From a virus (Duplodnaviria > Heunggongvirae > Uroviricota > Caudoviricetes): DNA of 64,000 bases. Of the stretch, positions 3,346 through 63,259 are shown in pieces. The stretch lies in the IMG/VR virus record IMGVR_UViG_3300046047_000103; one strand, written 5' to 3'. The notes beneath the pieces were generated by a model. It was not told the origin of the DNA, searched no databases, and was given only the letters and a program-made list of their open reading frames with translations. How positions within the stretch are numbered: the stretch's first letter is position 1; each line of letters begins with the position of its first letter. The translations under genes were made by a program, and so were the position numbers.

Positions 3346-4081
3346 TAGACGCCTCCTTGCCGGATGGAACGATCGCGTCTGACAAGACCTCCAGCAGCCT
3401 GTCCCGTACATGATCGTAATCGACGTCGATCATCGTTCGGACGTCGACGCTTACCGTGTGAGGTCTTTCACCGTAGATGATCTCCTCAGGGTCGGACGGA
3501 TCCCTCCATATCTTCATTGATCCAGGATCATCATTCGATGGAGCGTCATACGCCGTCTCCCATGACGGATCGATCTGCTTCAAGATCGATCTCATAAGCA
3601 CGTATGCCGAGTCCCTAGGAACGATCACGATTCCGGTGTCTTGTCCCATGACCAGATCTGCGGTAGCGTCATCATCATGATCAACGGGGTCAAGCTTGTA
3701 TCCATTGCCATCAGATCGTATGGATCCGCGATGATCTAGAACCACTGTGATAATGTCCCCGTACTGGCTCGTGATCTTCGGGATCTTAGCAAGATCATCC
3801 ATGCTGATCATGAATCGTTCCCACCTGTCCTGGTGCGGATCGTCATCGAATCTTAGCAGGCGGGATGATCTCATGATGTCAGCATCACTAGAACCGTCGA
3901 GTCTTACCACTGATGGCAGCCTGAATATTCTTGCATTCAGATCTGTCGTCAGCGAGTAATGATACACTATCGCCCTCCCGTGCCATCCATACCAGTGGAG
4001 GACGAGTGTCTTGCTGTCTTTATCCATATGATCATGATATCTTAATCTCGCGATGAAAGCAAACGGATGCGCTGCTTTCAC
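3332..4081 (-). CDS. hypothetical protein
   Basis: 249-aa ORF, translationally coupled to the downstream gene. Confidence 0.45.
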   Translation of the reverse strand: MKAAHPFAFIARLRYHDHMDKDSKTLVLHWYGWHGRAIVYHYSLTTDLNARIFRLPSVVRLDGSSDADIMRSSRLLRFDDDPHQDRWERFMISMDDLAKIPKITSQYGDIITVVLDHRGSIRSDGNGYKLDPVDHDDDATADLVMGQDTGIVIVPRDSAYVLMRSILKQIDPSWETAYDAPSNDDPGSMKIWRDPSDPEEIIYGERPHTVSVDVRTMIDVDYDHVRDRLLEVLSDAIVPSGKEASNDSK

Positions 4082-9514: not shown

Positions 9515-9931
9515 ATGGATGGTGAGGTCGTCTACTTCTCATCGGTGTCCGGGAACACGGCAAGATTCATAGTAAGCTGTGAGTTCACCGTCCCCGTGGA
9601 GCGGGTGCCGTTGAAGGCGTCTGAACCCCAGCTTGTGGTCACGAGACCCTATGTGCTTATCACGCCGACGTACGGTGGTGGTGAGAGCGGGCATGCTGTC
9701 CCGGTGCAGGTGAAGAGATTCCTCCAATGGCATGATAACTGGAGGCTGATGCGCGGGGTGATAGCAGCTGGAAACATGAACTTCGGAACCGCGTACGGTA
9801 AGGCCGGTGACGTGCTGTCCAGCAGGTTCCATGTCCCCATGCTGTACAGATTTGAACTCACGGGTACGGAGAGGGATCGACAGATCGTCCGTGACGGCGT
9901 GGAGGAGTTCCTCAGATCGCTTCCCGCTTGA
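9515..9931 (+). CDS. nrdI: NrdI flavodoxin-like protein
   Basis: VYFSSVSGNTARF motif. Start placed at MDGEVVYF after an AAGAGGTGA RBS. Lies directly upstream of nrdE. Confidence 0.8.
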   Translation: MDGEVVYFSSVSGNTARFIVSCEFTVPVERVPLKASEPQLVVTRPYVLITPTYGGGESGHAVPVQVKRFLQWHDNWRLMRGVIAAGNMNFGTAYGKAGDVLSSRFHVPMLYRFELTGTERDRQIVRDGVEEFLRSLPA

Positions 9932-45332: not shown

Positions 45333-46613
45333 ATGATGATAGACTCCATGAACATGAACAGAACAAGGATCTACTTCTTACAGGGATGCCATGGATCCGG
45401 TAAGACTAATTTCATTGCTAGTAACGGACTTCAAGACTATACGGTGTCCATAGATGAGATCATAACGGCCTTGCATCCAACGGCCGACCGGTATGATCCG
45501 GTTACTGGGGAGATCCGATCCCATGAGGTTGATGTCACTAGGGACACCCTGTCATCAGCTCTTGACGTCGCGCAGTCCATCATCGAGCGTCGGATGCAGC
45601 TAGGCTCCGTCATCATCGTGGACTGGCTAGACGTGAAGCGGAGACGGATCGGTAAGATGATTGATCTCGCCTCGAAGTACCGGTACGGCGTGTCATTCGT
45701 TGACGTCCAGCGCGGGCTGACGCTCGATGAAGCTGTGGACAGATCGTATCCGTTATGGCCGCAGGATGAGGTCATGAAGACATGGACTGACAAGCACCAT
45801 TTCGAGTACGGTCGAGACGATGAGGTGATCACGCCAGCCGAGCTTGCCAGCAGGATGCATGTGAGTGAGGTCGATCTGTCCCCATATGATCGCGTCAACG
45901 TGGTTGGTGACATCCAGGGGTGCTTCCATGCGCTGGAGAGATCCGGTCTTGACAAGCATGCGGACAATGAGTACACGATCTTCTGTGGAGATCTGTTCGA
46001 CAGGGGTCCAGCTGATGAAGCCGGTCCGATGTTCGACTGGCTGGTTGATCATATCAGTGATGATCATATGACGTTCGTCCGTGGGAACCATGACTCGTAC
46101 ATCAAGTACTATGGTAATCCCGTGTACAAGCCGTACTCCAAGTCTACGGTCGACACGATCAATGAGATCATGCAGGATGCGGCCAGTGTCCGCGGATCGG
46201 ATAAGATGCTGCGCCGGCATGGTCACCGGATCAATGATGGGATGGTCGACTTCTTCCCGTTCAGGATCAATGGGAAGCATTACTTCGCATCTCATGCCGG
46301 TGTCCATCCGAATGATCTTCCGTACACAGATCTGGGAGGGTCGAGGACATATGAGATCGGCTTCGATACCGGAGCTAAGTACTGGTACGGAACAGGGTTA
46401 AGACCAGGATTCCATGACTACAGGATCGACATCGACAAGATCGTGGACGCTACGGACACTGACATCATCCAGTTCCATGGCCACAGGAATGAGTACAAGC
46501 ATCGTCCTGATGAGTACGGCAAGATCTTCAATCTTGAGACCGGAGTGGAGAAGGGCGGCAAGCTGAGTACGGCGACGATCGTGAACGGCGGGGTAACCAT
46601 CCAGCAATTCTGA
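45333..46613 (+). CDS. polynucleotide kinase-phosphatase-like protein (P-loop kinase plus calcineurin-like metallophosphoesterase)
   Basis: GCHGSGKTNF (T4 Pnk-like Walker A). GDIQGCF, FCGDLFDRGP and VRGNHD (metallophosphatase motifs). Confidence 0.6.
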   Translation: MMIDSMNMNRTRIYFLQGCHGSGKTNFIASNGLQDYTVSIDEIITALHPTADRYDPVTGEIRSHEVDVTRDTLSSALDVAQSIIERRMQLGSVIIVDWLDVKRRRIGKMIDLASKYRYGVSFVDVQRGLTLDEAVDRSYPLWPQDEVMKTWTDKHHFEYGRDDEVITPAELASRMHVSEVDLSPYDRVNVVGDIQGCFHALERSGLDKHADNEYTIFCGDLFDRGPADEAGPMFDWLVDHISDDHMTFVRGNHDSYIKYYGNPVYKPYSKSTVDTINEIMQDAASVRGSDKMLRRHGHRINDGMVDFFPFRINGKHYFASHAGVHPNDLPYTDLGGSRTYEIGFDTGAKYWYGTGLRPGFHDYRIDIDKIVDATDTDIIQFHGHRNEYKHRPDEYGKIFNLETGVEKGGKLSTATIVNGGVTIQQF

Positions 46614-57850: not shown

Positions 57851-57950
57851 ACCGCGCTATACGATGTTGCCGTCATGGTCGCACGATGTTATAATAGATG
57901 CATATCTTGCATACGGAAGACAAGATCATGTACCTAGGAGGACGAGGTAA

Positions 57951-58469
57951 TTGGCAGATCATTCCGCCGGTCGTAGAGTGAACAAGCAGATCAGGTCTAA
58001 GAGGATCACTCTGATCGACATCAATGGTAAGAACGTTGGCGTGTACGATACGGATGTGGCTCTACAGATGGCCGAACGTGATGGATACGATCTGATAGAG
58101 ATGAATGATCATCAGGATCCCCCTATCGTGAAGATCGGTGATTACTCCAGGGAGAAGTACAAGCAGCAGCAGCGTGAGAAGCAGCAGCGGAAGAGTGCTC
58201 GAGCTCAGCAGGTCAAGGAGATCAGGCTGGGTCCGAAGATCGGTGAGCATGATCTTGAGACCAAGTGCAATCAGGCGCTCAAGTTCTTGCAGAGCGGTGA
58301 TAAGGTGAAGTTCAACGTCCAGCTCCGTGGCCGTGAACGTGATCACAGGTCGATCGCATTTGACCTCATCAACAAGGTCGCCAAGTCCCTGGCCGAGGAC
58401 AGCGTGGTCTCAACGCAAGCGTCGGCTAATGGCTCGTTCGTCAGCATGACTCTCTCGCCGTTGCGCTAG
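57951..58469 (+). CDS. infC: translation initiation factor IF-3
   Basis: Matches across both IF-3 domains (RLIDINGKNVGV, DLIEMNDHQDPPIVKIGDY, VKEIRLGPKIGEHDLETK, QSGDKVKFNVQLRGRE). The ORF begins with TTG. Confidence 0.8.
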   Translation: MADHSAGRRVNKQIRSKRITLIDINGKNVGVYDTDVALQMAERDGYDLIEMNDHQDPPIVKIGDYSREKYKQQQREKQQRKSARAQQVKEIRLGPKIGEHDLETKCNQALKFLQSGDKVKFNVQLRGRERDHRSIAFDLINKVAKSLAEDSVVSTQASANGSFVSMTLSPLR

Positions 58470-58508: not shown

Positions 58509-59972
58509 GTGGAGGTGATGAGATTGATGATGAAGAATGGTAAGGTCATGATAGATGACCAAGATCTCTCCGTTGAGATCGGTGAAGCGAAGCGGCTTGG
58601 ATCGCAGTACGCGGAGTCAGATCACGATCTTGCTCTTGTTGGAGGACCGGTACGTGACCTGATGCTCGGATCGCATCCGAAGGACTTCGATATGACCACG
58701 GACGCCAGACCGGATGTCTCCGAGCGGATCTTGAAGGCGTGGGGATCGTCATTCTGGAACGTGGGTAAGAAGTACGGTACGATCGGTGCTGGCAGGGATG
58801 TCAGCAATGGTGTCCACATGGACGTCGAGGTCACCACGTACCGCAGCGATTCGTATGATGGGCGATCTCGCAAGCCTGCCGTGAAGTGGGGATCATCCCT
58901 GGAGGGTGACCTGCATCGTCGTGACTTCACCATGAATGCAATGGCCATCACCCTCCCCGGAATGAAGCTCGTGGATCCGTTCCATGGAGCGGAGGCTATA
59001 AAGAACAAGATCATCATGACGCCGGGTTCCCCGTATGACTCATTCAATGATGACCCGCTGCGGATGCTTCGTGCGGTCAGGTTCGCTGGCAAGCTTGGAT
59101 TCCATCTTGACGGCAGGGTGCTTGACGCGATCCGTGAGATGGCGCCGCGTCTGGATGAGATCAGCCGTGAACGGGTGTCTGACGAGTTGTCGAAGATCAT
59201 GCTGTCCGCCCATCCTGTGGACGCTCTGAAGCTGATGATGGATTCAGGTCTGATGGATCATGTGCTTCCTGAGTTCTCGGAGCTGAAGAGAAGTGATGCG
59301 ACGAGCCGTGGGATGCATAAGCTGAATTACGAGCATTCCCTCACGGTGCTGGAGAACGCGATCAGCATGGAGGACAGGCTCGGTAACGGGCCAGATCTGA
59401 TTCTTCGACTGTCCGCATTGCTTCATGATGTCGGCAAGGCCAGGACTCGCAGGTTCAATGGTCGCAGGAAGGTCACGTTCGACCAGCATGAATTCGTTGG
59501 TGCAGACATGATTCGGAAGCGTCTGAGGGCATTGAAGTATCCGAATGACGTGGTGAAGACCGTGAGTGATCTTATCGGACTGCATATGAGGGCTCACGGG
59601 TATGAGAGCAACGGATGGACTGATTCAGCCGTGCGGAGATTCGTGCATGAGGTTGGACCGTTGTATGATCGTCTCATGATTCTTACAAGAGCGGATGTGA
59701 CCACGTCCCATGCATCAAAAAAGGTGCGGGTGATGAAGAGCATCGACTCTCTTGAAGCGCATGTGGACAAGCTCTGGAAGATGGACGATCTGAATGCTGT
59801 CAGACCTGAGATCGATGGGAATGAGATCATGAAGATCCTTCAGATTCGACCTGGTAAGATCGTTGGCCAGTGCTATCGTCATATGCTTGAGTACAGGATC
59901 GTGAACGGTGCGGTCGGCCATGCAGCCGCGGTCCAGGAGCTGAAGAGATTCTACGCGGAGATCGCAGGTTGA
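58509..59972 (+). CDS. cca: CCA-adding tRNA nucleotidyltransferase with an HD domain
   Basis: LVGGPVRDLMLG, DFDMTTDARP, RRDFTMNAMA and LHDVGK. Confidence 0.8.
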   Translation: MEVMRLMMKNGKVMIDDQDLSVEIGEAKRLGSQYAESDHDLALVGGPVRDLMLGSHPKDFDMTTDARPDVSERILKAWGSSFWNVGKKYGTIGAGRDVSNGVHMDVEVTTYRSDSYDGRSRKPAVKWGSSLEGDLHRRDFTMNAMAITLPGMKLVDPFHGAEAIKNKIIMTPGSPYDSFNDDPLRMLRAVRFAGKLGFHLDGRVLDAIREMAPRLDEISRERVSDELSKIMLSAHPVDALKLMMDSGLMDHVLPEFSELKRSDATSRGMHKLNYEHSLTVLENAISMEDRLGNGPDLILRLSALLHDVGKARTRRFNGRRKVTFDQHEFVGADMIRKRLRALKYPNDVVKTVSDLIGLHMRAHGYESNGWTDSAVRRFVHEVGPLYDRLMILTRADVTTSHASKKVRVMKSIDSLEAHVDKLWKMDDLNAVRPEIDGNEIMKILQIRPGKIVGQCYRHMLEYRIVNGAVGHAAAVQELKRFYAEIAG

Positions 59973-63069: not shown

Positions 63070-63146
63070 GCTTTCATGGCCCAATCGGCAGAGGCGCAGG
63101 GCACACTGCAGACCTGTTCATACTGGTTCGACTCCAGTTGGAAGCA
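63070..63146 (+). tRNA. tRNA-like element with a non-canonical anticodon region (possible pseudo- or unusual tRNA)
   Basis: Good acceptor (gctttca/tggaagc) and T arm (actgg-ttcgact-ccagt), and a D arm of the Leu/Ser type (ccaatcggcagaggc). No 5-7-5 anticodon hairpin can be drawn; the best fit is gcagg-gcacactgcaga-cctgt with a 12-nt loop. Confidence 0.3.
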
Positions 63147-63259
63147 CGCAGTATCAGTAGGCTATGAGCTGGCAGCGTGACGCAAGTCATCTTGGTTATC
63201 TGTGACCACCAGCGAGCTGAATGCAATAGCAGACGGGTGAGTGCAAGGCTCACCATCAT

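Follow-up and report, generated by a model that had tools for sequence, protein, structure and literature searches.

The cellular gene for the bacterial translation factor IF3, infC, has an AUU or AUC start codon by which it is autoregulated, whereas AUG, GUG and UUG are canonical for IF3, which rejects other start codons (PMC5499595). For the AUU codon of E. coli infC, PMC5499595 cites Butler 1987, Brombach and Pon 1987 and Sussman 1996 as the sources on this autoregulation. IF3 genes have also been published from huge phages, where they were read as a redirection of host translation (PMC7162821, Al-Shayeb et al. 2020), and IF3 is annotated in the isolated jumbo phages Agrobacterium phage Atu_ph07, Sinorhizobium phage Phosso and Yersinia phage fHe-Yen9-04. 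Phage-encoded IF3 is thus already documented, and the gene itself is not new. What the present comparison adds is a conserved weak start, an altered fidelity residue and a set of annotation errors made by gene callers.

The window analysed here is a stretch of 64,000 nucleotides from a virus of the Caudoviricetes (IMG/VR record IMGVR_UViG_3300046047_000103), with an IF3 gene on its + strand at positions 57951-58469. The product resembles bacterial IF3 (5ME0, 5LMN, 8JSG and the E. coli protein) in being full length, with two domains joined by a basic helical linker. The gene differs from bacterial infC in its position, flanked by a clamp-loader-like gene and the gene of a CCA-adding enzyme rather than set in an infC-rpmI-rplT operon, and in its start codon, which is TTG where cellular genes have AUU, AUC or AUA. 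The protein differs from bacterial IF3 in carrying Thr in place of Arg25, Ser in place of Arg168 and PPIVK in place of the PPVCR motif. Like the E. coli gene with its autoregulatory AUU, the phage gene has a conserved non-AUG start, in its case one shared by its close relatives; unlike in E. coli, where the codon is rejected by IF3, the UUG or GUG of the phage genes is accepted.

With the IF3 genes of other huge and jumbo phages, the window gene shares a setting in a very large genome with tRNAs and other translation genes (PMC7162821). The protein is at most 39% identical to these homologues (Atu_ph07, Phosso, fHe-Yen9-04 and the LR7565xx genomes). They keep Arg25, within VRL, IRL or VRV motifs, whereas the clade to which the window belongs has neither Arg25 nor Arg168. 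Their annotated or apparent starts are GTG in Phosso and Atu_ph07 and ATG in fHe-Yen9-04, LR756511, LR756500, LR756501 and LR756504, in contrast to the TTG that predominates in the window clade.

A complete two-domain IF3 in a huge phage

The open reading frame at 57951-58469 is a genuine, complete two-domain IF3 of 172 residues, followed by a TAG stop codon at 58467-58469. The N-terminal domain spans residues 10-79 (57978-58187) and matches Pfam IF3_N (PF05198) with 78 bits (cut-off 26.9; E 6e-22). The C-terminal, 30S-binding domain spans residues 87-170 (58209-58460) and matches IF3_C (PF00707) with 91.7 bits (cut-off 34.8; E 3e-26). A Gln/Lys/Arg-rich helical linker occupies roughly residues 65-86 (58143-58208) and has the sequence YSREKYKQQQREKQQRKSARAQQ. 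The NCBIfam equivalog for infC, TIGR00168, gives 156.2 bits (cut-off 60) and is covered from profile position 5 to 168 of 170. PDB chains of IF3 (5me0_Y and 5lmn_X) align to phage residues 10-170 with E of about 1e-33, and identity to solved IF3s is 32-36%.

An AlphaFold2 model computed from a 60-sequence alignment has a mean pLDDT of 87.4 and comprises two alpha/beta domains and a long joining helix, with disorder in residues 1-5 only. The N-terminal domain of the model consists of strands 18-22, 28-33, 47-52 and 59-63 and a helix at residues 34-43, and the linker helix, rich in Gln, Lys and Arg, extends over residues 65-83 with a pLDDT of 73-90. A short, basic, disordered N-terminal tail is a predicted feature of the 172-residue product. 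A Foldseek search with the predicted model ranked IF3 structures at the top; the C-terminal domain superimposes on 1tig with a TMt of 0.92 and an rmsd of 1.2, and the N-terminal domain on 1tif and 6o6d with TMt values of 0.86-0.90. The initial annotation had called the gene a full-length IF3 homolog, provided that a database search supported the similarity. The Pfam, TIGR00168 and PDB matches bear this out, as do the AlphaFold2 model and its Foldseek matches. Judged from its sequence, the phage protein should bind the 30S platform, separate the ribosomal subunits and join in start-site selection; proofreading of the start codon and of the initiator tRNA is a further property of the family.

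Elsewhere in the window, matches to PHROG families include RIIA, ribonucleotide reductase, a primase and an RNA ligase, and a DnaX-like clamp-loader gene, a CHAP-domain protein and a GNAT protein are also encoded. A gene for a CCA-adding/HD enzyme lies immediately downstream of the IF3 gene, and seven tRNAs are found in one run. A megablast search of the 5 kb around the IF3 gene against INPHARED phages returned no match, and neither did a scan of IMG/VR with the single phage IF3 protein. The IMG/VR scan with a three-sequence alignment returned one locus. Relatives were found on IMG/VR UViG 3300044557_000292 (419,707 bp) and on a 491-kb JGI contig, and the gene order clamp-loader, IF3, CCA-enzyme is common to the relatives. 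The IF3 gene thus belongs to a huge phage of roughly the 400-500 kb class, this size class being taken from the contigs of its relatives. The translation complement typical of huge phages is present, namely tRNAs and genes for tRNA maturation or repair in a genome above 200 kb, where the genome size is again that of the relatives. That the phage IF3 remodels host translation initiation, as proposed in the initial annotation, is plausible by analogy with other huge phages, for which the same reading has been published (PMC7162821).

Several further observations concern the tRNA genes and their surroundings. An RNA ligase/phosphoesterase-like gene (phrog_8238) is located at 45333-46613 and the CCA-adding enzyme gene at 58509-59972. 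Together with the tRNA array, they suggest a tRNA repair/maturation module alongside IF3. The array of seven tRNAs continues past the end of the window and includes a 78-nt tRNA at 63070-63147 (+), with a four-base anticodon 'actg', to which ARAGORN assigned no identity and which matches the Rfam tRNA family with 36.5 bits. This tRNA may have an 8-nt anticodon loop, or it may be degenerate. The matches listed from a scan of IMG/VR with an initiator-tRNA anticodon-arm motif did not include the 419-kb relative.

Start codon in the window and in related phages

On the + strand, the beginning of the gene reads ...AGGAGGACGAGG TAA TTG GCA GAT CAT..., and the frame then remains open to the TAG at 58467-58469. 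The frame upstream is closed by the TAA at 57948-57950, and therefore no start upstream of the TTG at 57951-57953 is usable. A strong Shine-Dalgarno sequence, AGGAGG, is located at 57936-57941, 9 nt ahead of the TTG. Not until codon 40, within the N-terminal domain, does the frame contain an ATG. A 45%-identical relative, in lineage L023, has the same TAA-TTG-GCN-GAN-CAT opening. Its N-terminal peptide, L-A-E-H-G-A-K-R-R-V, compares with L-A-D-H-S-A-G-R-R-V in the window, so that a peptide M-A-[DE]-H-x-A-x-R-R-V is conserved ahead of an in-frame GTG at codon 10. Four codons of this peptide differ synonymously between the two (GCA/GCT, GCC/GCG, CGT/CGC and AGA/CGG). Because the amino acids are conserved across these synonymous changes, the stretch between the TTG and the GTG appears to be translated. 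Translation thus very probably starts at the TTG at 57951. The initial annotation had placed a TAA directly upstream of a TTG as the first sense codon, which is what the sequence holds at 57948-57953, and its choice of TTG as the start is backed by the AGGAGG 9 nt upstream and by the N-terminal conservation in L023, from which the N-terminus is deduced.

Start codons were compared across six syntenic or sequence-related lineages with 45-56% protein identity for which DNA was recovered; the DNA of the L017 lineage was reached through P0227, a member of the same cluster as P0122. The start is TTG in the window and L001 (Shine-Dalgarno AGGAGG, 9 nt), in L002, L003, L004 and L006 (GGAG, 15 nt), in L015 and L016 (GGAGG, 13 nt), in L005 (GAGGAGG, 7 nt) and in L023 (AGGAAG directly before TAA-TTG), and it is GTG in L017 (AAGGAG, 5 nt). 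TTG is accordingly found in five of the six lineages, GTG in one and ATG in none, although the six share ancestry and do not count as independent events. L018, a syntenic relative at a greater distance (43% identity), has an ATG start, as apparently do several IF3 genes of other huge phages; a phage IF3 can therefore do without a weak start. ATG is the start of 32 of 33 neighbouring called genes (11/11 in L002, 12/12 in L017 and 8/8 in L001; of two further genes, from L003, one has GTG). TTG is a rare start in this genome: a census of the window guided by Shine-Dalgarno sequences gave 43 ATG, 7 GTG and 3 TTG starts, two of the three TTG calls being ambiguous. The N-terminal tail varies in length by lineage, from 7 to 10 residues before a conserved Ile or Val.

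The weak start of the phage IF3 gene looks selected, or at least maintained, since the tails differ, TTG and GTG have been exchanged once and no ATG has appeared at such divergence. The opposite view would be that the TTG is a neutral accident passed on from the ancestor of the clade, with no regulatory or dosage role. It is true that the TTG and GTG lineages all belong to a single clade, that ATG is the start in phage IF3 genes at a greater distance, and that a strong Shine-Dalgarno sequence may offset a weak codon. Yet none of the lineages has moved to ATG while their proteins diverged to 45-56% identity and their tails changed in length, one of them switched between TTG and GTG, and replacement of UUG by AUG is described in PMC5622118 as generally favoured in prokaryotes. 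In L002 and L015, moreover, an over-long Shine-Dalgarno spacing of 13-15 nt accompanies the weak codon, and this pairing fits a low output and is consistent with selection for it. A neutral accident is thus unlikely. The maintenance of a weak but canonical start in this clade contrasts with the AUU/AUC rule of cellular infC, and suggests that the phage copy is uncoupled from IF3 feedback.

Promoter, control of expression and fidelity residues

A sigma-70-type promoter with an extended -10 element is predicted at 57867-57895 (+), and consists of TTGCCG, a 17-nt spacer and TGtTATAAT, with the TG at 57887-57888 and TATAAT at 57890-57895. The promoter scan scored this site at 10 of 12 matches, with the TG present. 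The same TTGc(N17)TGnTATA(A/C)T layout is located 5' of the IF3 gene in L002 (about 9906-9925), L015 (about 1270-1279), L017 (7926-7955) and L023 (about 3890-3900), in a comparison that covers all five lineages with enough upstream sequence. This conserved extended -10 implies a dedicated promoter, presumably served by a host sigma-70-type polymerase. A transcription start deduced from the position of the -10 element would leave a 5' untranslated region of about 48 nt (57903-57950, +). Folding of this leader gave -18.2 kcal/mol, which is not significant relative to shuffled sequences (z = -0.29), and a search of 57903-57950 against Rfam found no family at E <= 0.1. A structured or known regulatory leader RNA was rejected on these two results.

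We favour, with moderate confidence, an explanation in which the phage IF3 gene combines its own promoter and a TTG start to give a low, fixed output that is insensitive to IF3. Transcription would begin at the host-type extended -10 promoter and yield a short, unstructured leader with a strong Shine-Dalgarno sequence. The UUG or GUG start would then hold output at a low and fixed level, which is its most likely role. The protein would act sub-stoichiometrically on 30S subunits and would be required in far fewer copies than there are ribosomes; in E. coli extracts, IF3 amounts to about 0.15 per ribosome (PMC5499595). Neither the IF3 of the host nor the phage product would shut off the gene. 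This explanation starts from the homology, the fold, the start site, the conservation of a non-ATG codon, the promoter motif and the phage context; from these we infer dosage limitation, insensitivity to IF3 and action of the protein on host 30S subunits. UUG is mentioned in PMC5622118 as a fairly efficient start in some Gram-positive bacteria, which would weaken the argument for dosage limitation in a host of that kind.

The initial annotation had suggested that the phage gene may share the fidelity-based control of cellular infC, and this suggestion was not supported. Autoregulation of the infC type needs AUU, AUC or AUA, and the phage gene starts with TTG. The reading frame from the TAA to the IF3 domain contains no ATT, ATC, ATA or CTG. 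An ATT at 57950-57952, which overlaps the TTG, was considered as an infC-like start and rejected, as it is out of frame, runs into a stop after 8 codons and has no counterpart in L015. The 6 close lineages have a non-ATG start and the distant L018 has ATG, and the codons that are conserved are canonical ones. IF3 accepts both UUG and GUG, and for this reason the AUU/AUC negative feedback of cellular infC probably does not reach the phage gene, by analogy with the E. coli system. In extracts with a 10-fold excess of IF3, translation of a UUG mRNA was only marginally affected and that of an AUU mRNA decreased by more than 60% (PMC5499595), as measured with E. coli components rather than with the host of the phage or the phage IF3.

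On the reading of the initial annotation, the TTG would expose the phage mRNA to IF3 fidelity control, and host or phage IF3 would repress it in the way that the AUU of cellular infC is repressed. This would account for the conservation of a non-ATG start in a clade where ATG is the rule among neighbouring called genes (32 of 33). UUG, a first-position mismatch to the CAU anticodon, also gave 55.8% full-length product against 90.4% for AUG in a reconstituted system (PMC10158994), and GUG and AUA mRNAs lost 20-25% of their activity in extracts of cells from poor medium with a 10-fold excess of IF3 (PMC5499595). Against this, UUG is one of the three codons that IF3 takes as canonical. A metagenome scan returned only distant relatives, at 34-38% identity, which we used as start-codon comparators; several of them (L007-L012) are apparently cellular infC genes in which a Shine-Dalgarno sequence is followed by an ATA or ATT start, and it is specifically this feature that the phage clade has not kept. 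In addition, E. coli IF3 depends on Arg25 to discriminate between codons, and the phage protein is without this residue, so that discrimination against its own mRNA is doubtful. Repression of this kind is therefore improbable, and a low, IF3-insensitive output remains the explanation that we prefer.

Fidelity residues were compared in an alignment of 228 homologues, using E. coli numbering. Tyr75 of the linker helix and Asp106, Lys110, Arg131 and Arg133 of the C-terminal domain are all kept in the phage IF3, and D106, K110 and R133 are invariant across the 228 homologues. By alignment, the equivalent of Arg25 is Thr20 (codon ACT, 58008-58010, +) and that of Arg168 is Ser162 (58434-58436, +). 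The Arg25 position is occupied by R in 191 of the 208 homologues that are ungapped there and by T, M, V, I, F or M in the phage clade, in which the Arg168 position is occupied by S, S, P, S, D or D. Both arginines are absent from every member of the clade (the window, P0002, P0003, P0227, P0123 and P0153). The PPVCR motif is likewise replaced, by PPIVK in the window and by PPIVK, PPVAR or PPIAK across the clade, with VPIVK in P0153.

Arg25 contacts the elbow of the initiator tRNA and is invariant among the bacterial IF3s analysed in PMC9723500. R25A mutants fail to restore the fidelity of start-codon and initiator-tRNA selection (PMC9723500), and loss of Arg25 in E. coli raises initiation at AUU and AUA and with non-initiator tRNAs. 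At least one cellular IF3 encoded in an infC-rpmI-rplT operon, P0140 (L024, 6001-6537), has Phe at this position. Arg25 is thus not strictly invariant in bacteria when this sequence is included, contrary to the alignment in PMC9723500. Because P0140 is cellular and also without Arg25, the absence of this residue does not exclude membership of the IF3 family, and its loss as an absolute, phage-specific rule is ruled out.

A phage IF3 with relaxed fidelity is a legitimate, if weak, hypothesis on the basis of these replacements. It might be extended to a mechanism in which the fidelity-relaxed IF3 of the clade competes with host IF3 on the 30S subunit and shifts the choice of start sites or initiator tRNAs during infection, while the exchange of the cellular AUU-type start for UUG or GUG lets its own gene escape repression by host IF3 and keeps its output small. 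We regard this extended mechanism as doubtful. The replacement of Arg25 does offer a concrete hypothesis, which mutations could test, of the way a phage may retune the start-site selection of its host, and together the conserved weak start and the altered fidelity residue would justify a small experimental follow-up.

The internal GTG and errors in gene calls

The GTG at codon 10 (57978-57980, +) is the sole other canonical start ahead of the conserved domain. Translation from this GTG, giving a 163-residue protein with the TTG as an incidental codon, is very unlikely: P0001 (163 aa, from L001, a 99%-identical contig) and P0122 (163 aa) are called from the homologous Val codon, the Pfam IF3_N profile starts exactly at residue 10 and some cellular homologues are called from the equivalent position (for example P0008 and P0011, with their MNERIR start), but the Shine-Dalgarno scan found no such sequence upstream of the GTG, whereas the TTG has AGGAGG; L002, L015 and L005 have ATC at the homologous position and no Shine-Dalgarno sequence at a proper spacing from it; codons 2-9 are kept as amino acids with synonymous changes relative to L023; TIGR00168 aligns already from residue 8; P0227, a second gene call in the L017 lineage, uses the upstream start linked to a Shine-Dalgarno sequence; and automatic callers repeatedly mis-start these IF3 genes, P0121 and P0153 being called from an internal ATG. 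The TTG at 57951 is retained as the main start.

The start of the IF3 gene is miscalled downstream in four lineages, represented by P0001 (L001), P0122, P0121 (L015) and P0153 (L023). In each case an internal GTG or ATG was chosen and the TTG or GTG linked to a Shine-Dalgarno sequence was missed, with a loss of 9-20 residues. Such mis-starts by automatic callers, in at least four lineages, are relevant to the annotation of translation genes in huge phages. Downstream of IF3 in the window, the CCA-enzyme gene has possible starts GTG, GTG, ATG, TTG, ATG and ATG at 58509-58532 (+), following a GGAGG; the call on a related contig corresponds to the ATG at 58527, and the TTG at 58524 is equally well spaced. 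In the apparently cellular infC genes L007-L012, a GGAGG-type Shine-Dalgarno sequence is followed 5-8 nt on by ATA or ATT, and the annotated or apparent ATG is a few codons upstream, inside the Shine-Dalgarno sequence. These are textbook non-canonical infC starts, of a kind that calling based on open reading frames would miss.
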